A DNA stretch of 28,881 bases, from assembly GCA_031414955.1 (NCBI GenBank), contig JANOQV010000022.1:1-28881 (forward strand), written 5' to 3'. Position numbers and translations under genes: made by a program. Below the pieces are notes generated by a model, which worked only from the letters and a program-made list of their open reading frames with translations, made no database searches and was not told the origin of the DNA. Below, one piece after another: positions 12,358-28,871 of this stretch. Each line of letters opens with the position of its first letter. The first letter of the stretch is position 1. This DNA comes from Pedosphaera sp. Lineage in GTDB: Bacteria; Verrucomicrobiota; Verrucomicrobiia; Limisphaerales; SIBH01.

Positions 12358-13842
12358 TCAGGCGAGAATGTCGCGAATCACTTCGCCATGCACGTCGGTC
12401 AGGCGCCGATCCACACCGTTGTTGCGATAGGTAAGCTTCTCGTGATTGAGGCCAAGTTGATGCAGCACGGTGGCGTGCAGATCGTAGCACTGCGTCTCAG
12501 CCTCGGCAGTCCGGTAAGACCACTCGTCGCTCTGTCCGAAGCTCACCCCGCCCTTGAGGCCGCCACCGGCCAGCCAGCTCGTGAAGGCGAACGGATTATG
12601 ATCGCGCCCCTTGCCGCCCTGGCTGCACGGCATGCGGCCAAACTCCGTGGTCCAGATCACGATGGTGTCGTCGAGCAGGCCGCGCGCTTTCAAATCCTGG
12701 AGCAGCGCCGCCGCCGGCTGATCCATGCCGCGCGCCATGTCGAGATGGTCCTTGGCCAGATCCTCATGGCTGTCCCAGTTGCGACGCGGGAAACCATTGT
12801 CGGCCCCGCTCCAGACCTGGACGAAGCGCACGCCGCGCTCCAGCAACCTCCGGGCGACCAGGCAGCGCGTGCCCAGGTCGCGGGTGTGCTCGGCATCGAC
12901 ACCGTAGAGCTTCTTCGTCGCGTCGCTCTCACCGGTGAGGTTGAGCACCTCGGGCGCGGTCAGTTGCAACTTCGCCGCCATCTCGTAGCTGGCGATGCGC
13001 GCATCCAGGCGCGAGTCCCCGGCCCGGCTGGCGCGATGCGATTCGTTCAAGTCCTTGAGCAAAGCCAGGGTGTCGCGTTCGCTTTCCGGATTGATGAACT
13101 TCGCGCTCTCCGGCGGGAAGAGATCGAAGATGGGATTTGGTTTGCCCACGCGAATCATCGTGCCCTGGTGCGCCGCCGGCAGAAAGGCCGAGGCCCAGTT
13201 GCCCGGCCCATTCGGCGCGAAACCGCGCACATCGGGCAACACGACGAAGGTCGGAAGATTGTCGGTGAGCGCACCCAGCCCATAGGAAACCCACGCGCCC
13301 ATGCTGGGAAATCCGGGCAACACGAAGCCGGAGTTCTGCATGAAGGTGGCCGGACCATGCACGTTCGACTTGGAGATCATGGCGTGCAGGAAGGCGATGT
13401 CATCGACGCACGAGCCAAGGTGCGGCACGAGGTCGCTGACCCATTTGCCGCACTGGCCACGCTGCTTCCAGTCCCAGGGACTCTTCATCACCGCGCCCGG
13501 CTCGCTCTGGAACAGTTCAACCTTCCCGCCCGGATCAAACTTCTGTCCATGCCGCGCGATCAACTGCGGCTTGTAATCGAAGGTGTCGCACTGGCTGGCC
13601 GCGCCAGACATGAAGAGCTGCACCACGCGCTTCGCCTTGGCGCGATGATGCAGACCGCCATTGAACTCGGGCCGGGGTTTCACCGCGTCGGCCAACAAAC
13701 CTTGAGCGCCCAGCAACTGCGCCATGGCGATGCCGCCGAGTCCGCCGCCGAAACGCCACAGGAACTCGCGCCGGTCGAAGTGCGGCGAGCCGCAACTCAG
13801 GACCGCCTCCTGCGAGGAACAAACATGACGTGGAGCATTCAT
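12358..13842 (-). CDS. DUF1501 domain protein with Tat signal
   Basis: DRREFL twin-arginine motif; AKRVVQLFMSGAASQCDTFDYKP, ARRLLERGVRFVQ, WDSH, EFGRMP, GRDHNP, RRLTDVHG. TGATG overlap with the upstream gene at 13842. Confidence 0.9.
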   Translation of the reverse strand: MNAPRHVCSSQEAVLSCGSPHFDRREFLWRFGGGLGGIAMAQLLGAQGLLADAVKPRPEFNGGLHHRAKAKRVVQLFMSGAASQCDTFDYKPQLIARHGQKFDPGGKVELFQSEPGAVMKSPWDWKQRGQCGKWVSDLVPHLGSCVDDIAFLHAMISKSNVHGPATFMQNSGFVLPGFPSMGAWVSYGLGALTDNLPTFVVLPDVRGFAPNGPGNWASAFLPAAHQGTMIRVGKPNPIFDLFPPESAKFINPESERDTLALLKDLNESHRASRAGDSRLDARIASYEMAAKLQLTAPEVLNLTGESDATKKLYGVDAEHTRDLGTRCLVARRLLERGVRFVQVWSGADNGFPRRNWDSHEDLAKDHLDMARGMDQPAAALLQDLKARGLLDDTIVIWTTEFGRMPCSQGGKGRDHNPFAFTSWLAGGGLKGGVSFGQSDEWSYRTAEAETQCYDLHATVLHQLGLNHEKLTYRNNGVDRRLTDVHGEVIRDILA

Positions 13843-16586
13843 CAGTCGAGGAACATAAACTCGTTGCTGTTGAACAACACGCGGCAGGCGCTGGCCAGGC
13901 CGTGCTTGCGGGCGTGGGCCGTGAGCTTTTCCTGCTCGCGCGAGTCGGGAGCACGTTGCAGGCAAAGCTCATAGGCGCGGTCAATCTGACCAGCCACGTC
14001 GGGGCGCTCCTTCGCCAGTCGCACCGCCAGTTGCTCCGCCTGCCGGATGACGAAGGCGTCGTTCAGCGTGGCCAGAGCCTGAAGCGCGGTGGTGGTGACG
14101 TTGCGCACCGGGGTCAACGCGTTGGCATCGGGACAATCGAGCGCGTCCATGAACGAGTCGGGCACGCTGCGCACAGTGAAGCGATAGATGCTGCGACGAT
14201 TGGCCCCCGGACTGTTCCAGTCGAAGCGCGTGTAATCGTAGATGGGGGAGTGATCGTCCTTGAACCAGAACTGCTGCACCGACGGGCCGCCCATTTTGAG
14301 ATCGAGGTTGCCGGCCACCGAGAGCAGCGCATCGTGGAACTGCTCGGCGTCCAGACGGGACCGGTTCATGCGCGCGAGGAAGCGATTGGCGGAGTCGGTT
14401 GGGTTCCGAGTTTCGGATTTCGAGTTACGAGTCGATGGCTCTTCCAAACTCGAAACCCCAAACTCGGAACTCGAAACTTGTTTGTAAGTCGCACTGGTCA
14501 CGATCAGTCGATGCAGCTTCTTGATCGATTCGCCGTTTTCCTGGAACCAAAAACTCAGCCAGTCGAGCAACTCGGGATGGCTCGGCAGCGCACCCATGCG
14601 GCCGAAGTCATTGGGCGTCTCCACCAAGCCACGCCCGAAGTGATAGTGCCAGACACGGTTCACGATGCTGCGACGAGTGAGCAGGTTGTTAGTGTGAGTG
14701 ATCCATTTCGCCAGCGCGGCGCGGCGCGCCCCTTCGTTGCTGGCATCGGGGATCTGAAACTCCGCAGACGATCCGGGCACGGCAGGCACGGCGGCGGCCT
14801 TCATTTCTTCGCCCGGCTTCTTCACGTCCCCGCGCTTGAGCAGATGAACCGGCCTCGGTCTACGCGACGGGATGAATGAGCCGTTGGTCGCGAAATCAGC
14901 CGTCGCTGCATAGACCATCTGCGGTTTGGGCAATTTTGCCTGGCCTTCACGCACGGACTTCTTCCCGTCGTCATTGCGCAAAATCTTCCGGAGCAGGTCG
15001 TCGGGAATGACGCGTTGCAAGCGCGCCTCACGCTGGGAGCGCAATTCCGCCAGGGCAGCACCGGCGTCGTTCGTCTCCACGCCAAAAAAGTAACCATCCA
15101 CGAGGTTCTTCTTCTGCCAGCGCACGGGAGCTTCGATCGAATCCAGCGCAGTGACCTTGGCGGTGCGGGCCAGATTTTCTCCAATGGAGTCGAAGACCAT
15201 CAATTCCGCCAAGGCGAAGATGAAATCGTTCTGGCGGGGCGCCAACTTGGTGGCGGTGATTCGGACGAAGCGCGCCTTGACTCGCGAACCGTCCTCGGTG
15301 AGACAGCCACAAATGGGAATGCTCTGTGGCTCGACGCCCGGATTGACCATATCATCCGCCAGGTTTTCCTGAATCATGGTCACGCCCTCGCGAAACTCCG
15401 CGTCGTTGGAAACCTCAATCTTGTAGCGCACGGGAAAACCGAAGCCGGCCCCGATCTTGTTGAAGTCGTCGTGGCAGCCGACAAGTTCGACGCGATCCAG
15501 TTCGTGCGGGGCGCCCAAATCCACTTGCACCCACTTCTCAACATCCTGCTTGAGAGAAATCTGGCTGTGGTAACCAAAGGCGGCCTTGTTGAGCTTGGCG
15601 TCGGGCCTGGCTTCGGCGATGCGCACGTCCAGGGCGCGCAGTTCCTCGCCACCAAGGTGCGCCACATCCAGATCAAGCCGTTTGCGTTCAACTGCAAGCT
15701 GCCATGCGGCCAGATTGAGTTCACTCCGTTGCTGTGCCACCGCCTTGTCGCCATCGAAAGGACGATCCGCACGATCCACACCGGCAAACACCGCCTGCAA
15801 GCCGTAGTAGTCGCGCTGCGTGATGGGATCGAACTTGTGGTCGTGGCAACGCGCGCAATGCACCGTGAGGCTCTGGAAGGTGCTCATGGTGTTCATGACC
15901 ATGTCATCGCGGTCGTTGTAGCGAGCGATGAGTCCGTCGGTCTTGGTGATGGGGAGCTCGACGTGGCCCACGAAATCCCATGGCCCGGCGGCGATGAAGC
16001 CGAGCGCGGGAATCAACGGCGGCGCGTCGGGAAACAAAACGTCCGCCGCCAACTGCTCTTCGACGAAGCGCGAGTAGGGCTTGTCGTTGTTGAAAGCACT
16101 GATGACGTAATCGCGATACGGCCAGGCGTTCAGGCGCGGCTTGTCCTTGTCGTAGCCGTGCGATTCGCCGAAGTGAACCGTGTCCAGCCAGTGCCGCGCC
16201 CAGCGCTCGCCGTGGCGCGGCGAGGCGAGCAAGCGATCCACGACGCGCTCGTAGGCGTCCGGGCTGCGGTCGTTGAGAAACGCGGCGACTTCCTCGGGCG
16301 TGGGCGGCAGGCCAATCAAATCAAACGTCACGCGACGGAGGAGCGTGCGCCGATCGGCTTGCGGAGACGGAGTCAGCTTTTGCTCCGCGATCTTGGCGCG
16401 GATGAAATGGTCGATGGGATTGGGAATAGCCAACAGCCGATCGCCAAGAGCCGGAACGCGCGGTTTCGCCGCCGGCGTGAAGCTCCACCAGTTGGTCCGA
16501 TCCGCCGCCCCAGCCATCGACGTGAACACGCCAACGAGCCAGAGCAGCGCGAAGAGCGCGGAGCCATTTCGGGAACGTGTGATCAC
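13842..16586 (-). CDS. DUF1549/DUF1553 (PSD1-type) protein with CxxCH and an inserted F5/8 type C (discoidin) domain
   Basis: Signal peptide; WWSF.P, NPIDHFI, RRVTFDLIGLPP, GERWARHWLD, HCARCHDHKFDP; the insert 'KWVQVDLG...GFGFPVRYKIEVS...ARFVRITAT...FALAELMV'; DUF1553 motifs VNRVWHYHFGRG, PSHPELLDWL, RRSIY, QALATLN. Confidence 0.9.
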   Translation of the reverse strand: MITRSRNGSALFALLWLVGVFTSMAGAADRTNWWSFTPAAKPRVPALGDRLLAIPNPIDHFIRAKIAEQKLTPSPQADRRTLLRRVTFDLIGLPPTPEEVAAFLNDRSPDAYERVVDRLLASPRHGERWARHWLDTVHFGESHGYDKDKPRLNAWPYRDYVISAFNNDKPYSRFVEEQLAADVLFPDAPPLIPALGFIAAGPWDFVGHVELPITKTDGLIARYNDRDDMVMNTMSTFQSLTVHCARCHDHKFDPITQRDYYGLQAVFAGVDRADRPFDGDKAVAQQRSELNLAAWQLAVERKRLDLDVAHLGGEELRALDVRIAEARPDAKLNKAAFGYHSQISLKQDVEKWVQVDLGAPHELDRVELVGCHDDFNKIGAGFGFPVRYKIEVSNDAEFREGVTMIQENLADDMVNPGVEPQSIPICGCLTEDGSRVKARFVRITATKLAPRQNDFIFALAELMVFDSIGENLARTAKVTALDSIEAPVRWQKKNLVDGYFFGVETNDAGAALAELRSQREARLQRVIPDDLLRKILRNDDGKKSVREGQAKLPKPQMVYAATADFATNGSFIPSRRPRPVHLLKRGDVKKPGEEMKAAAVPAVPGSSAEFQIPDASNEGARRAALAKWITHTNNLLTRRSIVNRVWHYHFGRGLVETPNDFGRMGALPSHPELLDWLSFWFQENGESIKKLHRLIVTSATYKQVSSSEFGVSSLEEPSTRNSKSETRNPTDSANRFLARMNRSRLDAEQFHDALLSVAGNLDLKMGGPSVQQFWFKDDHSPIYDYTRFDWNSPGANRRSIYRFTVRSVPDSFMDALDCPDANALTPVRNVTTTALQALATLNDAFVIRQAEQLAVRLAKERPDVAGQIDRAYELCLQRAPDSREQEKLTAHARKHGLASACRVLFNSNEFMFLD
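14399..14481. repeat. Inverted pair of heptamer tandem arrays inserted in-frame in the DUF1553 domain
   Basis: ttgggtt-ccgagtt-tcggatt-tcgagtt-acgagtc, a 13-bp spacer, then aactcga-aacccca-aactcgg-aactcga-aacttgt. AACTCGA is the reverse complement of TCGAGTT. Confidence 0.9.
16427..16454. repeat. Short degenerate heptamer tandem array in a DUF1549 linker
   Basis: tagccaa-cagccga-tcgccaa-gagccgg, period 7 with a GCC core. Confidence 0.6.
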
Positions 16587-16650: not shown

Positions 16651-17580
16651 TCAGAGCAACCGCACGCCGCGCGTTGACTCCCGCACGATCCGCCGCGACG
16701 GAAGTTCGCCCGCCGGGACGCGCGTCGCCGCCGTGCCCGCTCCCACGGCGGCCCGCAGCCAATCCTCCGGCGCGACTCTTTGCACCAGGCCGAATGCCGC
16801 CGCCGCGAGCATGGCATCGCCAGCGCCGACGGTGTTGAGCACCGGCCCGCGCGGCGGCACGGCTCGGGCGCGGAAGGACGCACGCGCGTTGATCAGCAGG
16901 GCGCCCTCCGCGCCGAGCGAGAGCAGCACCCAGCCCTGCGTGGTCGCGGAAAGTTTCGCGGCGGCGGATTCGGCGGCGCGCAGGGTCGGGAGCCGACGAC
17001 CGAACCAACGCTCCAGTTCGTGCAGATTGGGCTTCACCAGCCCAGGCCGGGCGGCGGCTCCGTGCGTGAACGCGTCGCCGTCGCAGTCCAGAATCACCGG
17101 CTGGCCGGCCTGGTGAGCGAGCCGGATCAACTGGGTATACGCATCCGAAGGCAGGCCGGGCGGCAGCGCGCCGGAGAGGATGAGCGCCGCGCCCTGCGCG
17201 AGAATTTTCTTCGCCGCGCCGACCACCGCGCGCCATTCAGCGCCGCTGTATTCAGGTCCGGGCGGATTGAACCGCATCTGGCGTCCACGCGCGGTGGTGA
17301 CGACCACGTTGACCCGGGTATCGCCGGCGAGCGGAATGACCTGGGCGCGGAGTTCCCAGGCTTTGAGACCCGAGCGCAGCTCGCGGCCCGACGCGCCACC
17401 GAGCGGGATGAGGATTTGGGAATCGCCTTCGAGAAAATTCAGCCAGCGCGCGACGTTCACGCCCTTGCCGCCCGGCCAGCGGCGTTGGGAGCGGACCACG
17501 TTCTTTTCCTCCCACAGCACGTCCTCGACGCGCCATTCGGCGTCGAGGGCGGGATTGAGGGAGACAACGCAGAGACGCAT
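16651..17580 (-). CDS. PfkB-family 1-phosphofructokinase-like hexose kinase
   Basis: SLNPALD, PGGKGVNVAR, LSGALPPG, LVKPNLHEL, LSLGAEGA, NTVGAGDAM. TGATG overlap with the subtilase stop. Confidence 0.92.
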   Translation of the reverse strand: MRLCVVSLNPALDAEWRVEDVLWEEKNVVRSQRRWPGGKGVNVARWLNFLEGDSQILIPLGGASGRELRSGLKAWELRAQVIPLAGDTRVNVVVTTARGRQMRFNPPGPEYSGAEWRAVVGAAKKILAQGAALILSGALPPGLPSDAYTQLIRLAHQAGQPVILDCDGDAFTHGAAARPGLVKPNLHELERWFGRRLPTLRAAESAAAKLSATTQGWVLLSLGAEGALLINARASFRARAVPPRGPVLNTVGAGDAMLAAAAFGLVQRVAPEDWLRAAVGAGTAATRVPAGELPSRRIVRESTRGVRLL

Positions 17581-20500
17581 CAGCGCTGGCGGATGCGGTA
17601 GAAACGATGACTGGGCAAGCCGCCGGTCAACGTGCCGTCGTCGGTGAAACTGAATTCGCCGGTGGCGGATGAGATGATCGCGGGCAGTTCAATCCACGGC
17701 CCGGCCGGGTCTTCGGCATACAGCACAGCAAAGGTGGCGCTGGAACTGGCGCTCCAGGAGAAGCTCGCGCCACCGGGGCCGAAGGACAGGCTCTTGCTCA
17801 CGGCAAGGTCAGCCCCGGGGGAGAAAGCCGCGCAGTTGGTATCAAAGCCGGCGATGATCTCAAAAGGCACCGGCACGGCGTTGGTGTTTTGCACGGCCAG
17901 GAAGTAGCGCCCGCGATTCAACAACGGATAGCTGCCCACCGAAAGAATGTTGGTCTCATCCAGCACATTGATGAGCAGCGGATAGTCGCCGAACGCGCCG
18001 GTGAGCGGGAAGGTGCCCTGGTTGAAAATGAGGTTCAGCGCATAAAGCGGGTTCAGGCTGCGCAAGACGTTGGTCACCTCGGCGCTGTCGCAGCTCACAT
18101 CGAAGGCGAAGTAGCTCTGGTTGCCGGGACCCACGCCCGCCTTGAAGGGCAGCGTGTTGGTCAGCAAGACGAAGGGCGGGTTGGTCCGCACGTAGGTCAG
18201 GTGCAACCGCCAGGCGATCAGATTCGCGGTGCTCACGTCCGCGCCCAGCCGGTTGTCCCAGAGCTCCAGCTTCCAGTCTCCCGCCGCCTGCTGGGCAATG
18301 AAGGGCGTCAACGGCTCCTCGGGCAGGTAATACTTCCGCCCGGTCTCGCGCAGCCACACGTCGTCCAGCCACACGCCGGGAGTGACGCCGGTGAATTCCA
18401 GCACCGTGTTGGTCGCGCGGGCCACGAAGGTGACGGTCTCGGTGCGCCATTGATCGGAGAGGGCGGAGAAGAAATTAGTGTAGCAGCCCACGAGCTTGAC
18501 CTGACCGACCGAGGCCGCGATGCGCGGGGCGACGCCGGGGTCGAGGAACAGGTTGTCCATGGTAAAGAGATCGCCAAATTCAGTCGTGAACCGCACCTCA
18601 TCCACGCCCTGATAGTCAAAGTTGACCAAAGTGGGGCCAGCCGTGGTCAGGTAGTTGGTGGTGTCGTAAACCACCGCGCCGCGCAGCAATCCCTCCACCC
18701 GCAGCGGCAAGCCGTCCACCAAAAGCGCGGTCAACTGCGCGGCGTTGAAGTTGAACGGACGGGCGCTGAAAAAGGAGGCGGCCACTCCGAGTCCATTGGT
18801 GTTGATGACCACGTTGCGCGGCGTCACCCAGGCCACCGGGAACTGGGCCGCGCCGTCCACCGCCGCAAAATAGTTCCACTGCAACCCGGCGAAGTCGTTG
18901 GGCACGGGCATGAAACTGCTGGGCGCGCCAGGGGCCGGCAAATCATCGAAGGTCACGACCGGAGTCTCGAGTGCGCCGGGCGCGAACTGAACTCGGAAAC
19001 CATGAGCGGAAGTCCCGCTCCCGTTGTCGCCATTGTCGAGCAGGAACTCCAACTGGTTCTGTCCGTTGGTGAACCCGGACGAGAGGGTGAAAAACACAAA
19101 CCCATTGGTGGCCGGTGGGCCGACCGCGAGACCGACGTCGCGCCCATTCAAACGAGTAGCGAGGATCTTGTCGTCGCCCGCCAGCCACCCGCTCAGGATG
19201 GCATTCGTCTGAATGCCCCGGAGATTGAACAAGACCCGATAGGTATAGGCGGTCGTGCCCAAGATCGAGGCGGCCAGATGATTTGAAGGATCAATTCCAA
19301 TCCATCGGGTGGCACCGTTGGTCTGATCAAACCAGGTGAACTCCATCGCATTTGTCCACTGCACGAAAGGCCGGTTGCTGCTCACCGTAAAGTCGTTGCT
19401 CGAGACGAGATAATGGGAATCGATCTCGCCGGGCAGCAAGGGCACATCGTCCCGGTCCACGCCCGTGCTGTAGAGGCTCCGGCGTGCCGTGCGGGTGGCA
19501 AAGCGCAGCGTGTATTCCCGGCCGACCACGGTCGGCAGCACCCGCTCCACCACGCCGGTGCGCAAGAAAAGGACGTTGGTGTCCGAGTAACCCAGCGCCA
19601 CGTTGGTTTGGACAAAGACGTGGTTGCTGGTCACCAGCCAGCCATCGAAAGCCTGGGTGGTGATGAGGCGGTTGGCGAAGGGGAAGATGGCGACATTGGT
19701 GAAGTTCGTCCGCTCAAACCCGCCGAGGAAAATGTTCGTCCCCGTGAAGTTCGTCTCCCCAAACGGCGTGGGCGCAAACTTGATCGGCCAGATGGCCTTG
19801 GCCGGATCGTCGGTGAAGGTTGCGTAAAGGATCTTGTTGGTGATGACCTCGATCTCATCCACGCGGACGGTGTCGAACAAGACGCCCGCCGGGTCGATCT
19901 CGCCGTTCACATTGGTGCCCCGGAATTGCAGCCGGTTGGTCACGCCGGTCGGGCGGAAGATAAAATTCGTCACCTTCCACGCCAGGTTCGTCCGGTCGCC
20001 CCAAGTATTGAGGGCATCATCCCGCACCTGGGCCTGCAACGTCGTCGTGCCCGAGAACAGATTGCTCAACGTCACCTCCGCCTCCGGCACGTAGGGCGTG
20101 AGGGTGATGACGCTGTTGGAACTGTCTGGATTGCGCGCGTAGGCGAAGGAAAGCTGATAGGTCCGGTTGGTTTGGAGCACCAGATTCGTCCACACGGTGC
20201 CGGGGGCGAAGTTTCCTACGTCCAGGCTGGCGCGGCCGCTGTGCGCGACGAAGCCGTGATCCGGATCGGGGTTGTCCACGATCAAAAGCGTGTTCCCTTC
20301 CCCGACCCTCCAGCCGGAAGTGATCGGCCCGGGCGGGTTGGTGCTCACGACCGTGCTCACGTTGAACCGGGGATCTTCAAATCCATCATCGAAGAGCCGC
20401 GCCCCGAAATTCGTGACCACGATGTTCGAGACCGTCCAGCCGTAGCCGTGCGGCGTATCGTACCCACGATTCTCGGCCAGCAGAGTGCGCACGCCGGTCG

Positions 20501-23500
20501 GGCCGGTCAGATGCACGGACAGATCGGCCACGCGCGGATGATCGATGCGCAGGTCCACCTCCACGCTGGCTACGAGGCCGCGGTTGGTCACGGTCAGGAA
20601 CGAGTTGGTCGTGGCGTCGTCGATGAAGAAGACGGAGTTGGTTTGCTCGAGGGTGAGAATGCGGTTGGCGTTCAAGCCCCGTTCGAGATCAACGGTCAGA
20701 TGGTAAGGCACGTCGTCCGGCCCCGCGTTGTAGAGACCCACGTAGTACCGGCCGGGGCTGACGGGCGGGTTATCGTTCAAGCCCAGGTCCAGGCAGCCGC
20801 CGGGAAAGAGGATGTCGAGCAACGCCTTGTCGTAGAAGACACGATCCGGGAAATCACCGCGCCGCAGATACAGTTCCAGCGGGCCGGTGCCGCCGCCTTC
20901 ATAGGTGACACAGGCATGGATGTTGGTCACATCCGCCGTCACCGGGAAGGCCGCGTAGCGCCAGCGCCCCGGCGGCAGCGTCCCGTACAAATCCACCGGA
21001 CGATTGCGGTTGGTGCTCGCGGGCGAGATGACCAGGGTCAGTTCCTGCACCAGGCCGGTGTGGAAAAGCGCGTTGTCCGAGATGTCATACTGCCAGAGGC
21101 CAAAGGCTTGCTGCCCGACGAAGTTGCGCAAGCTGCCCGGGCCGTCCGGCGGGATCGTCGGCGGCACGGAGTTGGTCAGGTCGCCTTCGTCGCTGTCGTC
21201 ATAGATGCTGGTGTCCCAACCGTTCCAGGTGCGGTGATTGTTTAACGTCACCGCCGCGTCGCTGCCATCGGTGGGATCGGCATGATGCAGGATGCCGATC
21301 AGGTCGCCCGCCTCCTCGTGGAAAAGGATATTGGTCACGATGACGCGCTGCACGAGCACGTCCCGCTCGACCACCAGGGCGAAGAGATTGGTGCCGCCCG
21401 GCGCGTCGGGCGTGCCGTCGGGAATGGGCGCGGGGAAGACGCTGGCGACGATGTTGTTGCTGCTGTCCCGCGCGCTAAAAGCTTTGTCGCTCGAAATGGC
21501 GATGATGCTGAACTGGGCCGCCTGCTGGTCCTCCGACTTCACCCCGATGTAGAAAACTTCATCCGGCACCGCGTTGGTGAAAAGCACCAGTTCGGTGCCG
21601 CTGCGGCCGGTGGATTTGGCGGCCAGCCCCACTTCGGTTGGATCGAGGAGCAAGAGCTTCTCCGCCGTGGCCGAGTGCTGGTCGGCACAAACATACAAAT
21701 CAATGTCCGCCTCGCGCACGCGCGGCCGCGACAGCTCGGGCGCGAAGAAGGTGAAGATGGCGACGTACTGCCCGGTCTTGACCACATTGTTCAGCGAGTT
21801 GGTGTAGAGGAAGAAGCACCACTGGTTGGTCGTGCCGTTGGTGCTGACGATCAGGGCGGAGTTCGCGCCCACGCGCTGGTTGAACAGTGCGGCCGAGTTG
21901 GCGTTGGTGTTGGCGCGAACGAGCGACGCGATCCGGTTGGAATTGTCGGAGGCAAAAGCCACCGGGCCGGTCACGGCCAGGTTCACGTTGTTCGAGGGCG
22001 CGACGTTGCCGCTGGAGATGACCAGGGCGTAATCCTGCCCGATGTAGTTGGAGTGGCTGTTGACTGAATTCACGTTCACCCGGTGGCCCTTGACCACCAC
22101 GTTGTAACTGGCCGCGAGCGGCGGACGGATATAGATGTTCTCGACGTTGTTCACGTAGTCGCGCGCGTCGCCCACCACCTGGGTCAGGTTCGTGACCGCC
22201 GGCAGGTTCGTATCCGTGGTCGAGACAACGAACGGCTCCACGAAATCGCTGCCGGGCGAAAAGTTGTTCCCCAGGTAGAGCAGCGCCGAACTGTTGGTCA
22301 CCGAATTGGTGCCGGAGACCGCGACGCTCGTGCCAAGTCCATCCACGGTCAGATTCAAATCGTTGACCAGCTTGACCCCGGTGAGCGGATTGCCGGGCGG
22401 ATCCGTCCAGACCAGCGAGACGCGCAACGGATAAGAGCGGGCCTCGGGCGGCACGGTGATGGTGTAGGTGTTCGACGCGCCGGTGATGAGCGAGTTGGTG
22501 AGGTCCTGGTCGAAGAAGCGCATCGGGCCAGTGGTGCCGTCCGGGTCCAGCCCGGAAGGAATCGAGTTGCTCAGGCTGACCAGACCCCAGCCCTGGTGAT
22601 TGACCACGGCGTGAGTGTCGAGGTTGTAACTCGGGCTGAGCGAGCGGGCACCGTTGATGACCAGCGCCTTGAGCAGCGCGGGGCTGGCACTGGTGACCCG
22701 CGAACCTTTGGCCAGGAACTCCTGGAAGAGCGCGAGCAGGCCGGAGATTTGCGGCGCGGCCATGCTGGTGCCCGCCTCGTAGCGATAATAGGGCTTGAGC
22801 GGCTCGTTCAGCGCCTTCAACTCCTCGTAGTAATTCCCCACGTCGTTGGTGACGGTGAGCAGCACCACCAGATCGAACACCACCGTGTTCGAGTCGAAGG
22901 CGTTCACCACCGTGTAGAACATCGTCCCCGGCCGCAGCGTCGGCGGCACGAGCGTCACGGGGCTGGGGCCAATGGTCGTGGTCGGCACGGCGTCAATGTC
23001 CGCGCCGATGAGCAGGCCCGGGTGGATCTGGGCCGTGGAATTCGAGAGCGCGAGAATGGTCACGCTGAGGGCATTGCCCGGGATGTTGAGCGCGAAGAGG
23101 TTGGTGACGTTGAACGGCGCGGGGACGAAGTTGTAGCGATAGACCGCTGTGCTGAGCGAATTGCTCTCCTCCTGAAAATCGATGCTGCGGGCCGAGACCA
23201 CCATGCCGCCAGGCGCGATCACGTCCGGCTTGAAGCGCCCGTTCGGCCCCTCGAGGCCGATGCCCACGTTGCCCCGCGCCGAGAAGGGCGCGACCTGGCT
23301 CGAGCTGTCGGTCATGGGCAGCCAGGGCTGGTTGGTCTGGCAGACCGTGACCACGCTGGTGGAGGTGGCGGTGATATTGGTCACGTCAAAGCATGGGTTG
23401 CGATAGACACGATTATCTATGAAGCGCGGCAGATCCGACCCGCCCACCGAGATCACATTCTTGGCCGTGGCCGGCGAGAGGATGCTGCCGGGAATGCCGT

Positions 23501-24911
23501 TCAAGCCCTGGCTGTCGCCGCCGCCGTTGTTGCCCGCCGCAAAGACGTAGGCCACTTCCTGCTCGCCCGTCTCGCCCGGCGACGAATCGCGCACCGCCGC
23601 GTCATAGCTGGCCGCGAAAATGTCGTAGTCGTTGATCGGGTAGCCCCAACTGTTGTTGGAGATGCGAATCTTCCGCAGCGCCGTCTCCAACTGGAGGTTG
23701 GCATCCGGCCCGCGATAATCCTGCACAAAGACCGTGGCCAGCGGAGCCACCCCGGAGAAGATCGCCGCGTTCGTCGAACCCATCGCGTTGGTCGGCGCGA
23801 GCGGCGAGGCCGCGCCATCTCCGAGCAACGTGCCGAGGACGTGCGTGCCGTGGCCATCCAGGTCCGGCGCGTAACTGCCCGGATCGATGCGACCGGTGAA
23901 GTCAGGATGCGAATCGTCCACGCCCGAATCGTTCACGCCCAGCAGCACATTGAGACCGGTCAAGTGATCCGCCGCCGTGGGCGCACCGTAATGACTCTCG
24001 GGCGGGCGCGTGATGGGCTGGTTGGTGGAGACGCGAATCTTGACCCGGCTCAGATCGTTGGCGAGCCGCTTCGGCACATGGACCGAGATCAATTGCACTT
24101 CGCGAATCTGCGCGAGGGCCGCGAGCGCGTTGGCCGGCGCCTTCACCTTCAACACGTCGCCAAACACGGTGGTCTGCGGTGCGCCCTCGATCTGCGCGCC
24201 CAGCCGTTCCAGTTGCGCCCGGACGGCGGCGGCCTGGCGCGGGAAGCTGACCACGTTCAGGAATTCATAGGCGGAGAACTGCCGCTCCACCGCCAGCGGC
24301 AGCAGCAGCGAATCAAATTTGTAGTACGGCTCCAACGGCTCCACCGCCTGCACCCAGGACGAGCCGCGAATGCCGGCCAGCACGCCGGAATCCGCGCGCA
24401 CCAGGAAGGCGTTGTTCGGCACGTAGGAAATAATTTCCGCGCCCGCCCCGGTGAGCCACGCGCGGAAGGAGGCCGTGATCGCGCCGCGCGACTGCACGAT
24501 GTAAGCGCCGGGATCGCCCTGCGCCCGCAGGTGCGCCGGGATTTCCGGCCGGGCCGGGTTGGCCGTGTTCAAGAGCACGTTGCGCAAGAGCAGCGCGCGA
24601 TCACTGCGGGCCAGTTCGTTGAGCGGCAGCTTCGTGTTGCTCAGGCGATAGGCGACCAAGCCCGCCGGTGGGCCGTTCGGGACATTGGTCGTGACGGTGG
24701 CGAGCAGTGGGAGCACCGAGGCGTCCGCGAGATAGTTCGTGACCTGGAGTCGGAAGGGCTGGCCGGTGGCGGCGTTGGTCGCGCTGACCGCGTTCGTGGC
24801 CACGGCGGAGGGCCGCCGCGCGACGCGCTGGTCGCCGAGGTGCCAGAACCAGGCGGCCGCGCCGAAGAGCACGAGGCTCAACAGGAACCAATGACGTGTT
24901 TTGAGGCGCAT
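17580..24911 (-). CDS. Giant multidomain S8 subtilase (propeptide, catalytic domain, proprotein-convertase P-domains, PPC/DUF642-like beta domains, C-terminal FYR domain)
   Basis: N-terminal hydrophobic anchor or signal; propeptide 'YIVQ...AEIISYVPNNAFLV'; catalytic triad GVNDSG (~23930), HGTHV (~23850), GTSMAAP (~22765); oxyanion FAAGN; KPDVIAPG; QGWG; 'LVWTDPPG...NDLNL...NNVE'; P-domain motifs. Confidence 0.92.
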   Translation of the reverse strand: MRLKTRHWFLLSLVLFGAAAWFWHLGDQRVARRPSAVATNAVSATNAATGQPFRLQVTNYLADASVLPLLATVTTNVPNGPPAGLVAYRLSNTKLPLNELARSDRALLLRNVLLNTANPARPEIPAHLRAQGDPGAYIVQSRGAITASFRAWLTGAGAEIISYVPNNAFLVRADSGVLAGIRGSSWVQAVEPLEPYYKFDSLLLPLAVERQFSAYEFLNVVSFPRQAAAVRAQLERLGAQIEGAPQTTVFGDVLKVKAPANALAALAQIREVQLISVHVPKRLANDLSRVKIRVSTNQPITRPPESHYGAPTAADHLTGLNVLLGVNDSGVDDSHPDFTGRIDPGSYAPDLDGHGTHVLGTLLGDGAASPLAPTNAMGSTNAAIFSGVAPLATVFVQDYRGPDANLQLETALRKIRISNNSWGYPINDYDIFAASYDAAVRDSSPGETGEQEVAYVFAAGNNGGGDSQGLNGIPGSILSPATAKNVISVGGSDLPRFIDNRVYRNPCFDVTNITATSTSVVTVCQTNQPWLPMTDSSSQVAPFSARGNVGIGLEGPNGRFKPDVIAPGGMVVSARSIDFQEESNSLSTAVYRYNFVPAPFNVTNLFALNIPGNALSVTILALSNSTAQIHPGLLIGADIDAVPTTTIGPSPVTLVPPTLRPGTMFYTVVNAFDSNTVVFDLVVLLTVTNDVGNYYEELKALNEPLKPYYRYEAGTSMAAPQISGLLALFQEFLAKGSRVTSASPALLKALVINGARSLSPSYNLDTHAVVNHQGWGLVSLSNSIPSGLDPDGTTGPMRFFDQDLTNSLITGASNTYTITVPPEARSYPLRVSLVWTDPPGNPLTGVKLVNDLNLTVDGLGTSVAVSGTNSVTNSSALLYLGNNFSPGSDFVEPFVVSTTDTNLPAVTNLTQVVGDARDYVNNVENIYIRPPLAASYNVVVKGHRVNVNSVNSHSNYIGQDYALVISSGNVAPSNNVNLAVTGPVAFASDNSNRIASLVRANTNANSAALFNQRVGANSALIVSTNGTTNQWCFFLYTNSLNNVVKTGQYVAIFTFFAPELSRPRVREADIDLYVCADQHSATAEKLLLLDPTEVGLAAKSTGRSGTELVLFTNAVPDEVFYIGVKSEDQQAAQFSIIAISSDKAFSARDSSNNIVASVFPAPIPDGTPDAPGGTNLFALVVERDVLVQRVIVTNILFHEEAGDLIGILHHADPTDGSDAAVTLNNHRTWNGWDTSIYDDSDEGDLTNSVPPTIPPDGPGSLRNFVGQQAFGLWQYDISDNALFHTGLVQELTLVISPASTNRNRPVDLYGTLPPGRWRYAAFPVTADVTNIHACVTYEGGGTGPLELYLRRGDFPDRVFYDKALLDILFPGGCLDLGLNDNPPVSPGRYYVGLYNAGPDDVPYHLTVDLERGLNANRILTLEQTNSVFFIDDATTNSFLTVTNRGLVASVEVDLRIDHPRVADLSVHLTGPTGVRTLLAENRGYDTPHGYGWTVSNIVVTNFGARLFDDGFEDPRFNVSTVVSTNPPGPITSGWRVGEGNTLLIVDNPDPDHGFVAHSGRASLDVGNFAPGTVWTNLVLQTNRTYQLSFAYARNPDSSNSVITLTPYVPEAEVTLSNLFSGTTTLQAQVRDDALNTWGDRTNLAWKVTNFIFRPTGVTNRLQFRGTNVNGEIDPAGVLFDTVRVDEIEVITNKILYATFTDDPAKAIWPIKFAPTPFGETNFTGTNIFLGGFERTNFTNVAIFPFANRLITTQAFDGWLVTSNHVFVQTNVALGYSDTNVLFLRTGVVERVLPTVVGREYTLRFATRTARRSLYSTGVDRDDVPLLPGEIDSHYLVSSNDFTVSSNRPFVQWTNAMEFTWFDQTNGATRWIGIDPSNHLAASILGTTAYTYRVLFNLRGIQTNAILSGWLAGDDKILATRLNGRDVGLAVGPPATNGFVFFTLSSGFTNGQNQLEFLLDNGDNGSGTSAHGFRVQFAPGALETPVVTFDDLPAPGAPSSFMPVPNDFAGLQWNYFAAVDGAAQFPVAWVTPRNVVINTNGLGVAASFFSARPFNFNAAQLTALLVDGLPLRVEGLLRGAVVYDTTNYLTTAGPTLVNFDYQGVDEVRFTTEFGDLFTMDNLFLDPGVAPRIAASVGQVKLVGCYTNFFSALSDQWRTETVTFVARATNTVLEFTGVTPGVWLDDVWLRETGRKYYLPEEPLTPFIAQQAAGDWKLELWDNRLGADVSTANLIAWRLHLTYVRTNPPFVLLTNTLPFKAGVGPGNQSYFAFDVSCDSAEVTNVLRSLNPLYALNLIFNQGTFPLTGAFGDYPLLINVLDETNILSVGSYPLLNRGRYFLAVQNTNAVPVPFEIIAGFDTNCAAFSPGADLAVSKSLSFGPGGASFSWSASSSATFAVLYAEDPAGPWIELPAIISSATGEFSFTDDGTLTGGLPSHRFYRIRQR

Positions 24912-24975
24912 AGCTTAGTTAATCACACTTTCTCACTTCACCGAAACCACAATTAACGGAGACCGGAATTTCGGA

Positions 24976-25026
24976 CCTCCCTCTCCCCTCAACGGGGAGA
25001 GGGAATGAGGGTGAGGGGAGAGGGAG
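24976..25026. repeat. REP-like palindromic element (CCCTCACCC...CCCTCTCCC...GGGAGAGGG type)
   Basis: cctccctctcccctcaacggggagagggaatgagggtgaggggagagggag. CTCCCTCTCCCCTCA can pair with the proximal GGGGAGAGGGA or with the distal TGAGGGGAGAGGGAG. Confidence 0.85.
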
Positions 25027-25069
25027 CTGGAACGCGCCGCTTTGGCGGCCCTGTCCTTCGTCCTGTTCG

Positions 25070-25097
25070 CATCCGTGTTCATCCGTGTCATCCGTGT
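25070..25097. repeat. 9-bp tandem repeat (CATCCGTGT)x3
   Basis: catccgtgt-t-catccgtgt-catccgtgt, just downstream of the pseudopilin stop codon. Confidence 0.85.
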
Positions 25098-25112
25098 CTA
25101 AAAATCTTCCGC

Positions 25113-28100
25113 TCAATCCGGCGGCAGCACATTGAAGCTCTCCACCACGGCGCGCAGCTTGCCGCGCGGGTCGCCCTCCACCCGCACCACCGTGCGCGTG
25201 GCGTACTCGGCCGTGACCTGATAATTGCGCACCAAGCCCGTGGCCGGATCGATGTCCGCCGGCTTGAGCGCCTGGCCGTAGGCGTAAATCACAAAGCGCG
25301 GCTCCCCCAGCCGGAGCAGGGAAAGAATCTGCTGCGGGATTTGTTCGTAGGCGAAATCGTCCACGCCGTCCTTCGCCTGCTTCCCGGTCGGCTCATCCAC
25401 GTTCAAGTAAGGCGACTTCACCGTCAGCTCGGGAAGCTGGAGCAAATCGCCAATGCGCTCGATGGGCATGATGCGCCCCGCGGCGTTCGTGCGGCTCGTT
25501 TGATAAGAATAAATCGTGGACCAGATGCGGCCCAGTCCGGTGTTCGCCGCAACCTGGGAACCGATGGGTTCGATGAACTGCGGCTCATATTGGTGGGGTG
25601 TGAATTGAGCCGGCGACGGGGTGGAATTCGACAAGACCACGATCGCGCTGAATAACGCCGACCAGGATTCGCGATTGGTTTGATTCATCGACATCAGCCC
25701 GCGGGTAGTGCGCTCGTCGATGCCGGTGGTGAACATATCCGCCAGCAACCAGTCGTTGGTCGGATGGGTGCGTGAAAAATCAACCCAGTTGGTGGCGTCA
25801 AGACGCGACGCCACATCCGCAGATTGCTCCAGCCAGACTTTTACCGGGACAGGGCCACTACCTTTGTTGGTCGTGATGCTCAACGGTGCGGCCTCGGACT
25901 TGAAGTAAACCGACTGCCACGGAGTGCCACGGTGAATGCGCCCTAGCAAGCCGATGCTGGCCAATGGACCCTTGGGAAAATTCCAGTCGTCAGGAGAGTA
26001 AATGCCGGCATCCTTGATTCTCCGATCGTACTGGCCCGGAGGAGGATCCAGCGGGTCACTGAAAGGACTTCCTCCCCACGGTGCGTATCGCTCGTTTAAC
26101 CGCCCCAAACTTGAAGGCGCAATGTTCGTTCCTGCTACGTTCGGCTTCAAATGCTGGTAATTCGTCGATGTCCCAAGGCGCAAATCTTGCGGGTGATAAT
26201 GCACAATAGGATCGTTCGCCTGCCAGGTGCTGACCACCGCCAGTTTCGCGGCCGGATTGAAACCAGCCTGCATGGCGAGCACAGAATTACTGCCGACGGT
26301 ATTGGTCCCGAGTGCGCCCAGACCACAGAAAACCCGGAATGCAGTGATGGCGTTATCCTTGTCCCTCTGACTCAGGCTGACCGCTGGGGTGAAGTCACGC
26401 CACTCCGCCAAGGTGGTCGTCAAATTACCCAACGCGATGTCCATCTGTCGCTTGATGCCCTCCGTCGGAGCAGTCGCGGAGTAGCGATTGGTGTCCCAGA
26501 CACCTTGAATGTTTGGAGTGGCGGACCCAGCAGGATAGGGAGCGCCTGTGAGATTGGGGAATAAATCCACGACCTGATTGTCGGTGAGCATCACGTAGTC
26601 CACCATCCGGTTGCCTTCGGACATCAGGTAGCTCATCCGGTTCGACACGGTGTAAACCCAATCAGGAAGAGGGAAGCCGGGAACCGACTCGAAGACGTTG
26701 GCGTTGATGTTGGTAAAATAATTTCCAGTGAACCGATACACCGCATTGGTCAGGAAGATCACGTTGGTCTGCACCGGCACGGCGAAGCCATACGTGTCAC
26801 CGCCCAGCCAGTTCGCGGGGAGGTTTGTGGTGTTGCCGGAAATCAGGGTTGCATTGGCCTGATAGCCCAAAGAATTGCTCAACATGCAAGTGGCCCGATT
26901 GGTCACGGTGATCGTGACCGATCGCGGATATGGACCAGCCTTTCGGTAGTCGTATGAATTCCACGTCTCAATACCGAAGAAATTGGAGATGCCGAGCACG
27001 TACATCTGGTTGGTGGCATCCGGAAACCGTCCGGGGCTGGGCGGATTAAACGCTGTGCGGGTCAATTGGAGTTTGCGCGCGACCGTGATGTCGGAGCGCA
27101 GGGTCAATTCGTTAAAATTCGGAAAGCCCTTCTTCGTGCCGACAACGAGCGGGATGCCGTTCGTGTTCGTGTCCACCCACGCCTGCAACGTACTCACGCG
27201 GTCGTCATTGGTGAAGCCCACGACGTAGTTCACCCCGCTCAATGGCCCTGGCCCGAAGAGCGGGCGGAAGACGGACGGATATTCCGTCCCGTTAATCGCG
27301 TCGTAGATGTTCGCCGCCTCCTGAAGAATGCGATGGATGGCCGTGGTGTAGAGGTTGGTCGGGTAAACCGGAATCTCGGTCATGGAGCGAATCGGAATCG
27401 AATTGGTCGCCGGATTAAACTCGTTCGACTGCGCGAGGAAAATGCGCTGGGCCACGTTGACGAAAAACTCCACCGGAAAATTGGTCCAGGAGATGAAGTC
27501 CGCCGCCGAGTTGGTGCCGAAGGCGGCGTAGTTGAGGTTGATGCGGTTGTGGTAGTCGCTGCCGGTGTCGGTGTTGAGCTGGGCGATCAGCCGGTAGAAG
27601 GTCAGCGGGTCAGCCCGGATGCCGTCGGGGGTGTAGCCATTGATGGCCCGGAGCAGGTTGGTGTGGAACCCGGTGGTGACCTTGCCCGGCGCGTAGGTGT
27701 TGGTGACGTGGAAAAGTTCCTGCGGATGGAACCAGTGGTGGAAGGCATCCGCGCCCGGCCAGCCGAAGTTCACCGCCTTGGTCGCCACGTCGTCACCCGG
27801 AGCAAACGGATTTACGCCCAGGACATTGCCCGCCAATCCCGTCCCATCAGAATAAGCATCGATGGAAGGCGGAGGAAAGAAATTGGGCGGATTGGTGGCG
27901 TTCGGGAACGTGTCGGAGAGCTTGGGCATGACGTTCCCCCAGTCGTTCCGGTAGGCCAGAAGCGAGCGAGCGTCCTTGAAGGCCGTATTACCGGAGCTGA
28001 GGGCCGCGCTGCCAGCGATGGGCGAGGGGAACGGCCCGTAGCCGTACTGGCTCAGGTTGCCGTTGGGCGTGCTCCACCAGACATCCGGCTGCAACTCGGC

Positions 28101-28871
28101 AAGGAAGGCGGCGAGGTTCAGCTCCCACGGACCAAAGCCCTGGTTGCGCTTGAAGTGCGAACCCGCATTGAGCAGCGGGTCAACGGCCGCATTGTGAATC
28201 GTGTTCAGGTCCAGCGACTTGCCCGCCGGCAGGACGATGTAAGCCATGCGCCCGAGGAAGCGGTTGTTCGGCCCAATCGGCGTCCATTGCTTTTCGGGAA
28301 TGCCAATCCAAATGGGATCGCCAAAGGGCGCGTTGGTGAACTCGTAGGGGTCGTTGAACTGATTGTCGCGATTCCAATCAAGATAAACCCCCATGGTGTT
28401 GCCCAGATTGGTCACGGCGGGAATCTCATTCCGGTTGGAGGGGCTGAGCACGCCGCCAAAGAATCCGACCTGGTAATTGGGCGAGTTGGTGGGCGAGGCG
28501 TAATTCGTGGAGGGCGCGGAGACGAAGAATTCAAAGGAGAGCAGATTCTGGTCGCGCAGGATGCGGTTGATGGCTTCGCCAATGGCGCGCTGATAGGCGG
28601 CGTCGCCGGCGAACTCCGCGCCGGACTGCTCGCGCCGGAGGGAGGTGCTCTGGCGATTGCGCCGGGCCGTGGCCAGGAACACGACGGTGAGAATGGTGAT
28701 GATGGCCAGCATGATGAGCGTGAGCACGAGGGCCACGCCGCGTTGGGAGCGCATCCGGCCTCCCTCGCCCCTCCACGGGGAGAGATTCCACGAACGAGCG
28801 TTCGCGATTTGTGCCCCTGAACCGGGCAGAGCGCCGGCGGCCGCCCCCGCGTTTGGGGGGCGGATATACAA
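25113..28871 (-). CDS. Giant GspK/PilX-like minor pseudopilin; start uncertain (ATG 28754, TTG 28871 or beyond the window)
   Basis: Class III leader SQRG|VALVLTLIMLAIITILTVVFL with no Glu at +5. GspK-like motifs: 'GRMAYIVLPAGKSLDLN', 'RGLMSMNQ...WSALF' and the C-terminal 'RFVIYAYGQAL...EYATRTVVRV'. The frame stays open to the window edge. Confidence 0.75.
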   Translation of the reverse strand: MYIRPPNAGAAAGALPGSGAQIANARSWNLSPWRGEGGRMRSQRGVALVLTLIMLAIITILTVVFLATARRNRQSTSLRREQSGAEFAGDAAYQRAIGEAINRILRDQNLLSFEFFVSAPSTNYASPTNSPNYQVGFFGGVLSPSNRNEIPAVTNLGNTMGVYLDWNRDNQFNDPYEFTNAPFGDPIWIGIPEKQWTPIGPNNRFLGRMAYIVLPAGKSLDLNTIHNAAVDPLLNAGSHFKRNQGFGPWELNLAAFLAELQPDVWWSTPNGNLSQYGYGPFPSPIAGSAALSSGNTAFKDARSLLAYRNDWGNVMPKLSDTFPNATNPPNFFPPPSIDAYSDGTGLAGNVLGVNPFAPGDDVATKAVNFGWPGADAFHHWFHPQELFHVTNTYAPGKVTTGFHTNLLRAINGYTPDGIRADPLTFYRLIAQLNTDTGSDYHNRINLNYAAFGTNSAADFISWTNFPVEFFVNVAQRIFLAQSNEFNPATNSIPIRSMTEIPVYPTNLYTTAIHRILQEAANIYDAINGTEYPSVFRPLFGPGPLSGVNYVVGFTNDDRVSTLQAWVDTNTNGIPLVVGTKKGFPNFNELTLRSDITVARKLQLTRTAFNPPSPGRFPDATNQMYVLGISNFFGIETWNSYDYRKAGPYPRSVTITVTNRATCMLSNSLGYQANATLISGNTTNLPANWLGGDTYGFAVPVQTNVIFLTNAVYRFTGNYFTNINANVFESVPGFPLPDWVYTVSNRMSYLMSEGNRMVDYVMLTDNQVVDLFPNLTGAPYPAGSATPNIQGVWDTNRYSATAPTEGIKRQMDIALGNLTTTLAEWRDFTPAVSLSQRDKDNAITAFRVFCGLGALGTNTVGSNSVLAMQAGFNPAAKLAVVSTWQANDPIVHYHPQDLRLGTSTNYQHLKPNVAGTNIAPSSLGRLNERYAPWGGSPFSDPLDPPPGQYDRRIKDAGIYSPDDWNFPKGPLASIGLLGRIHRGTPWQSVYFKSEAAPLSITTNKGSGPVPVKVWLEQSADVASRLDATNWVDFSRTHPTNDWLLADMFTTGIDERTTRGLMSMNQTNRESWSALFSAIVVLSNSTPSPAQFTPHQYEPQFIEPIGSQVAANTGLGRIWSTIYSYQTSRTNAAGRIMPIERIGDLLQLPELTVKSPYLNVDEPTGKQAKDGVDDFAYEQIPQQILSLLRLGEPRFVIYAYGQALKPADIDPATGLVRNYQVTAEYATRTVVRVEGDPRGKLRAVVESFNVLPPD
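28759..28784. repeat. Second, partial copy of the REP-like palindrome at the 5' end of the pseudopilin gene
   Basis: cctccctcgcccctccacggggagag matches 24976-25001 at 24 of 26 nt, in the same orientation. Confidence 0.8.

Follow-up and report, generated by a model that had tools for sequence, protein, structure and literature searches.

The 28,881-nucleotide stretch of Pedosphaera sp. DNA analysed here (the window; contig JANOQV010000022.1) carries a type II secretion/pilus cluster (GspE, a GspL-like protein, GspM and GspD), several unrelated genes, a secreted subtilase and a PilX-like protein. The last two are rich in the dipeptide Thr-Asn (TN), which the first-pass annotation, made from the letters alone, took to be a possible modification motif of exported proteins. 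Its approximate hand counts prove exact: 59 TN and 11 Asn-Thr (NT) in the subtilase, 29 TN and 9 NT in the PilX-like protein. The TN counts expected are 14.8 and 8.0, respectively, and none of 2000 shuffles of either protein reached the observed count, so the excess does go beyond amino acid composition.

Both proteins, predicted substrates of the putative modification, are encoded on the minus strand. The subtilase (2443 amino acids, positions 17580..24911) contains Peptidase_S8, P_proprotein and a choice-of-anchor C-like stretch. The PilX-like protein, a PilX/GspK-like large pseudopilin of 1213 amino acids (25113..28754), is most likely translated from the ATG at 28754 rather than from the TTG at 28871. 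Its N-terminal helix is the sole part that matches Verru_Chthon_A/GspK, with a score below the cut-off, and a Foldseek search with its model gave no match at E<=0.001. TN exceeds 1.5 times expectation in all 120 of its homologues. As had been noticed, most TN sites lack Ser or Thr two residues after Asn (present at 7 of the 59 subtilase sites and none of the 29 others). The pattern T-N-[^P]-[VILFMTPAW], where [^P] is any residue except Pro, accounts for 49 of the 59 (7.6 expected) and 18 of the 29 (3.9 expected).

The same dipeptide recurs in the secretion cluster, on the plus strand, in the N-terminal Pro/Ala linker of GspD (TNAP at residue 32 and TNAL at 39, positions 4407..4439), in further linker sites of that protein (TNVA at 142 and TNIV at 147, positions 4737..4763), and in the periplasmic tail of GspM (4195..4305), where TNAP (199) matches the pattern and TNPP (232), with Pro after Asn, does not. 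The first-pass annotation remarked on both clusters. The window copies by themselves are not significant (GspD: 5 TN versus 2.4 expected, p=0.08, with 5 NT as well; GspM: 2 versus 1.2), and it is over homologues, whose kinship makes them less than independent, that the observation gains significance: 147 TN versus 35.3 expected in the GspD linkers of 64 sequences (a ratio of 4.2, with site positions that shift) and 31 versus 6.8 in the GspM tails of 69 sequences (4.6). In contrast to the N-terminal linker, the long Gly-rich loop of GspD (window 5349-5723, residues ~346-470) has 1 TN versus 23.6 expected in the 64 sequences.

Other products of the window also carry sites. The GspL/PilM-PilN-like protein has a periplasmic TNAL (residue 345; 3263..3274, plus strand), and TN is found in 64 of 74 such sequences. 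The YdjY-domain exported protein (7023..7397, plus strand) has three motif sites, TNSP, TNSF and TNSM (0.4 expected), and the PSCyt2/PSD1 cytochrome-type protein (14682..16496, minus strand) has four TN, three of which match the motif (0.8 expected). The single TN of GspE is, as annotated, in HTND (1729..1740, plus strand), a cytoplasmic ATPase motif conserved in 80 of 80 sequences and outside the phenomenon; HTND aside, the GspE sequences give 6 TN versus 69 expected. PfkB and the DUF1501 protein (12358..13965, minus strand) do lack TN, but with only 0.3 and 0.7 expected, this alone says nothing; the latter has a Tat-like signal and belongs to the twin-arginine (Tat) signal class, considered below, that shows no excess.

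A Thr-Asn motif on the outer side of Sec-exported proteins

A hexamer model called 4334 genes in the host genome (95.9% complete), recovering 13 of the 14 window genes used for comparison and missing a short M48-type gene. The 966 signal-peptide proteins have an observed-over-expected ratio (O/E) for TN of 3701/1747=2.12. In the 381 multi-pass proteins it is 775/400=1.94, and for 1659 proteins strictly defined as cytoplasmic it falls to 836/710=1.18, the two most charged quartiles of these giving 0.93 and 1.07. (A looser first cytoplasmic class, in which trimmed starts hid signal peptides, gave 1.61 and was replaced.) In exported proteins, neither NT (0.83) nor Ser-Asn (SN; 1558/1503=1.04) is enriched, and TN is the top dipeptide of most subsets, Cys-His in cytochromes aside. 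TN outnumbers NT in 528 signal-peptide proteins and is outnumbered in 129. The excess hardly varies with length class (2.02-2.22), charge quartile (2.00-2.16) or protein type (2.13 in Sec proteins, 2.12 in lipoproteins, 2.27 in c-type cytochromes and 2.16 in sulfatase-like proteins). Nor is there the marked clustering after signal peptides that had been reported: the per-residue TN frequency is 0.0077-0.0083 at positions 20-70, 0.0068-0.0071 at positions 70-200 and 0.0075 in the last 40 residues.

Proteins that span the membrane show the excess on its outer side. TN stands at 6/11.1 (0.54) before the membrane helix and 110/46.1 (2.38) beyond it in 35 Ser/Thr kinases; the 31 type II membrane proteins have 10/11.2 on the cytoplasmic and 63/31.1 on the outer side, and the 74 GspL sequences 23/28.2 (0.82) inside and 70/32.7 (2.14) outside, on the same chain. 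(Seven kinases called without a helix have TN at 8/3.5, five of these being in a single protein, where they follow a weak helix.) The 77 proteins with twin-arginine signals, some of which may not be exported at all, show no excess (62/62.7, 0.99). The presence of the excess in Sec proteins and its absence from Tat-signal proteins fit a reader of unfolded chains leaving Sec. The Tat-signal set, which includes DUF1501-like proteins and oxidoreductases, is large, and the absence of the motif could serve to mark Tat as opposed to Sec substrates in this order.

The proteome-wide excess is therefore limited to Sec-exported segments (2.12 in signal-peptide proteins versus 1.18 in cytoplasmic and 0.99 in Tat-signal proteins). 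The annotation's phrase "confined to exported proteins" is apt for the excess and not for mere presence, as TN occurs in cytoplasmic proteins at about the level of chance. An equal enrichment in cytoplasmic proteins, named beforehand as the outcome that would speak against the idea, was not found.

The motif proper is (Thr, less often Ser)-Asn-[not Pro]-nonpolar, enriched about threefold in those parts of Sec-exported proteins that lie outside the inner membrane. O/E is 3.29 for T-N-[^P]-[VIL] and 2.96 for T-N-[^P]-[VILFMTPAW], versus 0.97 when the last residue is one of KREDG. The [T/S]-N first proposed is thus part of something longer. SN as such is not enriched, and only when followed at the same distance by a nonpolar residue does it rise (S-N-[^P]-[VIL], 1.61); with residues other than these two before Asn, the ratio is 0.90. 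Replacement of Asn by Asp or Gln brings the ratio to 0.84 and 0.60. Pro after Asn is disfavoured (TNP 1.15 versus 2.12 for TN), even though Asn-Pro is favoured (1.25) after other residues, and Gly before TN is mildly favoured (1.45). The nonpolar set was chosen on the host genome and then confirmed on independent sequences: 189/83.5 in 17 genomes of the order Limisphaerales and 2400/445 in the 120 PilX-like homologues. In the host genome, the motif is present in 552 of the 966 signal-peptide proteins and 287 of the 1659 cytoplasmic proteins, at densities of 5.71 and 1.05 per 1000 residues. Two known motifs are not enriched: the canonical sequon [^T]N[^P][ST] stands at 2670/2783=0.96 in signal-peptide proteins, and the Bacteroidota motif D-(S/T)-(A/I/L/V/M/T) at 1068/1314=0.81 in the same 966 proteins and 125/166=0.75 in the 17 genomes of the order. 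D-(S/T)-nonpolar was also depleted in the non-cytoplasmic proteins of one further family (f4; L050-L053), at 25/44.9 in a small sample.

Several explanations that need no reader of the motif were considered. A cause at the level of codon pairs or DNA was rejected, because the Thr codons ACC, ACG and ACA are used alike and the shifted frames show no excess (0.94 and 1.16; antisense, 1.22); the codon pair ACT-AAY is avoided. Inflation by paralogues or repeats was rejected on the basis of the 615 segments without paralogue matches, which keep the excess (1186/594); there are 3298 distinct 6-mers among the 3701 TN sites. A beta-turn or strand motif was rejected in view of the presence of sites in linkers (46/18.4 TN in disorder-like windows), the turnover of alignment columns and the spread of sites over the AlphaFold model of the PilX-like protein (pLDDT 82.8), where coil, strand and helix carry them at 1.09, 1.12 and 0.90 of background. 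An alignment of 118 PilX-like sequences has 332 columns with the motif, only 9 of which keep it in at least half of the sequences. Thr swaps mainly with Ser in these columns and Asn is almost fixed: Asn is paired with Thr 2199 times, with Ser 476 times and with the next most frequent residue 73 times, and given Thr, there are 2199 Asn and 30 Asp. Where a site has been lost, its Thr and Asn columns hold polar residues, the hydrophobic fraction being 0.18 and 0.09 versus a background of 0.34.

The range of the excess was judged from 20-kb samples, one to six from each of 55 genomes. For the 17 Limisphaerales genomes, four of which individually give 1.2 or less on small samples, TN is at 305/168=1.82 among non-cytoplasmic proteins, against 54/53 among cytoplasmic ones. 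Non-enriched values come from other orders of the same class (206/242=0.85) and from one other class of Verrucomicrobiota (47/67=0.70). A second, sister class, probably Kiritimatiellia, is patchy: 10 genomes are positive (motif p<0.05; TN up to 2.8), 4 negative and 3 unclear. Beta-rich proteins of unrelated phyla had been named as a place where the excess, if found, would tell against a modification; 28 chosen E. coli K-12 exported proteins, fimbriae and autotransporters included, are not enriched (40/74.2). The surmise that the trait is lineage-specific is thus borne out: Limisphaerales show it throughout the order, the second class shows it in patches, and the other Verrucomicrobiota sampled and E. 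coli lack it.

Candidate glycosyltransferases

The first-pass annotation suggested a search for a co-distributed oligosaccharyltransferase. In the genomes searched, STT3 was not found, and it is GT-C proteins of two other kinds, TMEM260-like and YfhO-like, that co-distribute with the motif. The STT3/PglB core (PF02516, PF21436) was not found in the host genome; PF02516 exceeded the cut-off in none of 46 relatives (two weak matches), in a search whose controls were positive in archaea only, so that its sensitivity for bacterial PglB is not established. WWDxG was not found in any membrane protein, and the one WWDFG belongs to a soluble protein that resembles oxidoreductases.

More than 15 GT-C-like proteins were noted in the host genome, and seven membrane GT-C candidates were sought in panels that ranged from 46 to 62 genomes. 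Only two of the seven, a TMEM260-like protein (henceforth A) and the YfhO-like protein, are present in all 19 motif-positive panel genomes. A PMT_2-like candidate (L202) was set aside as it also occurs in motif-negative families and three motif-positive genomes gave no match to it, and an Agl23/TIGR03663 candidate (L193; 19 of 46 genomes) as it was not found in 9 of the 19. An O-antigen-ligase+TPR protein (L204; 34 of 46) is common in motif-negative genomes, and a TMTC-like protein (L191; 22 of 46) does not track the trait. One 2.9-Mb Limisphaerales genome (G253, contigs C11 and C17) has 23 matches to TMTC-like GT-C/TPR proteins, many in tandem arrays.

A has 1242 amino acids (G000:C241:30017-33745, minus strand), a match to PF11028 (E 9.6e-29) and TPR matches. 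PF11028 matches 81 of 81 genomes of the order, mostly twice, and 72 of 201 in a sample of the phylum; among 14 control genomes, the one match is in Bacteroides thetaiotaomicron. Aligned with the human TMEM260 structure 9rql (profile E 1.6e-38), A shows three matching stretches, with matches in the GT-C core, the donor loop and the palm region, and it retains equivalents of the human donor-binding residues D52, H67, R264 and Y267. (The single-sequence model of A has pLDDT 41.5.) Among 120 homologues of A, RGQY is present in all and xxDSGE in 101. The gene was found in 34 of 52 panel genomes, including the 19 motif-positive ones and six negative ones. In one genome of unclear motif status (G003, 1.46; L280, G003:C1:213045-215134), A seems split into two frames of 327 and 702 amino acids. 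A gene for an ECF sigma factor lies directly upstream of A on the same strand in the host (G000:C241:34071-34604) and at three other Limisphaerales loci (L089:9532-10083, L091:8737-9291 and L093:8578-9126).

The YfhO-like GT-C protein (L200; G000:C165:17075-19708, minus strand) was found in 26 of 46 genomes: 9 of 9 from the order, 17 of 17 from the second class and none of 20 others. Its gene in the host is flanked by several methyltransferase-like genes (to 30572, identified by eye), which suggests a methylated outer glycan. Its C-terminal part, identified by eye, adjoins A in G008, and its gene is about 4 kb from A in G104. In G050, genes for a GT2 polyprenyl-phosphate hexose transferase-like protein and a decaprenyl-phosphate phosphoribosyltransferase-like protein directly precede A, and a B-type gene (described next) completes a cluster of about 9 kb (L274:2369-3627, L335). 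A pentose donor is conceivable.

The host also has a degenerate TMEM260-like paralogue (B; G000:C14:50536-53424, minus strand). B was found in 13 of 13 genomes of the order, and B-type proteins in 10 of 17 sampled genomes of the second class, 8 of which are motif-positive (Fisher p 0.02-0.03, with kin that are not independent). The donor-binding residues D52, H67, R264 and Y267 are not conserved in the B-type proteins examined (14 from the order and 27 from the second class, three rows being unaligned there). The tree of B proteins is unrooted and leaves the orthology of the two groups undecided. B tracks the strength of the motif. In non-cytoplasmic proteins, O/E values for TN and motif are 0.79 and 0.82 in 19 genomes without A, 0.88 and 1.02 in 2 with A only, 1.13 and 1.18 in 7 with A and the YfhO-like gene and no B, 1.69 and 2.23 in 10 with all three, and 1.82 and 2.26 in the 17 Limisphaerales, of which 13 were checked for B and 9 for the YfhO-like gene.

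Interpretation and known systems

The signal is real, strong and lineage-specific, and its most plausible reading on sequence grounds is a new sequon for a type of system already known. On the same grounds, a modification of the site is likely, probably a glycan that is carried by Thr and not by Asn. That glycosylation of some kind takes place at the motif we consider quite probable. With a confidence only a little above even, we favour a more specific reading, in which the motif serves as the sequon for general O-glycosylation of Thr and Ser in the periplasm, with A and its partners as the machinery. A would take a sugar from a polyprenyl-phosphate carrier and place it on the hydroxyl of Thr (or Ser), acting on the unfolded chain as it leaves Sec, by analogy with human TMEM260, which acts on extended peptides. 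A would thus initiate the glycan. The YfhO-like protein would extend it or ligate an outer glycan, an idea that draws on the two-step model proposed for Bacteroidota (PMC12871550). B might then be a non-catalytic partner in recognition.

Several observations weigh against this O-glycosylation scheme or the data beneath it. The strict need for Asn and the exclusion of Pro after it resemble the rules of N-glycosylation. In A, the residue aligned with the human catalytic base D441 is the Thr of GGTDPG (Thr676; 119 of 120 homologues), the invariant Asp (Asp677) being one residue on, and human R355 aligns one position off a Lys/Arg. A is present without an excess in G153, G005, G104, G125, G038 and G158 (10-23 thousand residues each), and so is not sufficient; four of these six also have the YfhO-like gene. 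G158, which is motif-negative, has B, and in two motif-positive genomes, G023 and G071, no B was found. In the host, A has no glycosyltransferase neighbours. The co-distribution rests on few independent lineages, 7 candidates of more than 15, and samples of 20-100 kb per genome. The localisation classes come from our own hydropathy rules rather than from SignalP, and a small excess remains in the cytoplasmic class (sign test 338:273, p=0.01), probably from mis-called starts. Finally, one topology test ran the other way: in 33 proteins called as a signal peptide plus one helix, the C-terminal, supposedly inner side has TN at 62/29.8, 38 of the 62 lying in three giant secreted proteins whose helix was called in error.

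Might the glycan be on Asn instead? The motif would then be an N-glycosylation sequon of a new type, in which Thr or Ser before Asn takes the place of the usual hydroxyl two residues after it and a GT-C enzyme other than STT3, A or the YfhO-like protein, makes the transfer. The near irreplaceability of Asn, the loss of the excess when Pro follows and the alignment of the human hydroxyl-activating Asp with a Thr in A all lean this way, the preference for Thr over Ser parallels that for NxT over NxS, and the exclusion of Tat substrates fits equally. We nevertheless think it unlikely, given the failure to find an STT3/PglB core or a membrane WWDxG, the lack of any excess of the canonical sequon, and the O-linkage of every TMEM260 activity so far characterised. 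Its full form, a proteome-wide, Sec-coupled N-glycosylation free of STT3 in Limisphaerales and part of the sister class, with a TMEM260-like catalytic subunit of altered active site, a dead paralogue, a YfhO-like extender and thousands of sites, is to our minds similarly doubtful; if true, periplasmic proteins would be glycosylated by a third route, its sequon legible from genomes alone.

The sequence statistics would suit any co-translocational reader: a transferase of something other than sugar (phosphoethanolamine, phosphoglycerol or an acyl group), a protease or ligase, or a chaperone associated with Sec. A and the YfhO-like protein would merely share its lineage, in keeping with their presence in motif-negative genomes, with the test of only seven membrane candidates and with the kinship of the genomes compared. 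Such a reader seems improbable to us, however, as thousands of dispersed surface sites of fast turnover, in about half of the exported proteins, match the pattern of Bacteroidota glycosylation (PMC12871550), and the distribution of GT-C genes follows the trait in two separate clades. Least credible by far, and hardly to be entertained, is the idea that there is no reader at all and that structure, composition or codon use in the beta-rich secreted proteins of this lineage, or expanded repeats, produce the excess. The strongest single proteins are indeed giant beta-rich surface proteins, a nonpolar residue two after Asn could mirror strand register, and one codon pair is avoided. Yet short and charged exported proteins have the excess to the same degree, and it persists without paralogues, in disordered linkers and with the codons ACC, ACG and ACA, is lacking in shifted frames, and is not seen in E. 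coli or in the other orders of Verrucomicrobiota.

If the O-glycosylation reading is right, bacterial relatives of TMEM260 would gain a function, and the family would include general bacterial protein glycosyltransferases with lineage-specific sequons. It predicts some 1700 excess sites in the 966 signal-peptide proteins of the host genome (2533 observed versus 856 expected), which would be relevant to proteomics in Limisphaerales, an order abundant in soil and freshwater. A four-residue glycosylation tag might also be of use in glycoengineering. The cultured Pedosphaera parvula allows a direct test, its PilX-like protein P0240 having 31 TN versus 8.8 expected. The literature searched, to which most subscription papers did not belong, held no account of the TN motif or of protein glycosylation in Verrucomicrobiota.

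The closest parallel is the general O-glycosylation of Bacteroidota, marked by a Man-Rha-GlcA core O-linked to Ser/Thr and by a metG-wzx-glycosyltransferase (lfg) locus. Its motif is given as D-(S/T)-(A/I/L/V/M/T) (PMC12871550; PMC8729774). The first of these sources places mannose at the reducing end and describes the transferase as undiscovered; it also calls this system the only known motif-driven bacterial O-glycosylation and reports its motif to be enriched in non-cytoplasmic proteins only, about half of them, in this phylum only and not in all of its species. The system proposed here is similar in its short motif, in its restriction to non-cytoplasmic proteins (again about half) and in its patchiness within lineages. 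Both motifs combine a hydroxyl residue, Asx and a nonpolar residue, and B. thetaiotaomicron has a PF11028 gene. They differ in that Thr is preferred to Ser in T-N-X-nonpolar, whereas Ser is preferred to Thr after Asp in Bacteroidota, whose motif is depleted here. The present motif is, moreover, known from sequence statistics, and its modification is predicted.

With N-glycosylation by PglB, AglB or STT3 (N-X-S/T), the motif shares a central Asn, the disfavour of Pro after it, the preference for Thr and a location outside the cytoplasm; it differs in the hydroxyl residue before Asn, the nonpolar residue two after it, the lack of N-X-S/T excess and the failure to find STT3. The S-layer O-glycosylation of Kuenenia stuttgartiensis (PMC5088730) likewise concerns a member of the Planctomycetes-Verrucomicrobia-Chlamydiae group and O-linked Ser/Thr, and the mild preference for Gly before TN recalls its tentative motif, G-(T/S)-X; there, however, one S-layer protein is modified, the motif lacks Asn and the phylum is another.

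Human TMEM260 is a protein O-mannosyltransferase with PF11028 (PDB 9rql/9rqm/9rqn; PMC10214176; 10.64898/2026.03.17.711096), and it is described as acting on extended peptides at Thr, with Ser tolerated (10.64898/2026.03.17.711096; 10.64898/2026.09.21.753134). Its action on unfolded chains and its preference for Thr parallel the Sec-linked, Thr-preferring motif. A resembles it in the GT-C core, donor loop, palm region, C-terminal TPRs and donor-binding residues, and differs from it in length, in extra membrane helices, in the Thr that aligns with D441 and in being accompanied by a second, degenerate paralogue. The human sequon is a long signature of IPT domains, found in few clients; that of Limisphaerales would be a motif of four residues, with thousands of sites.

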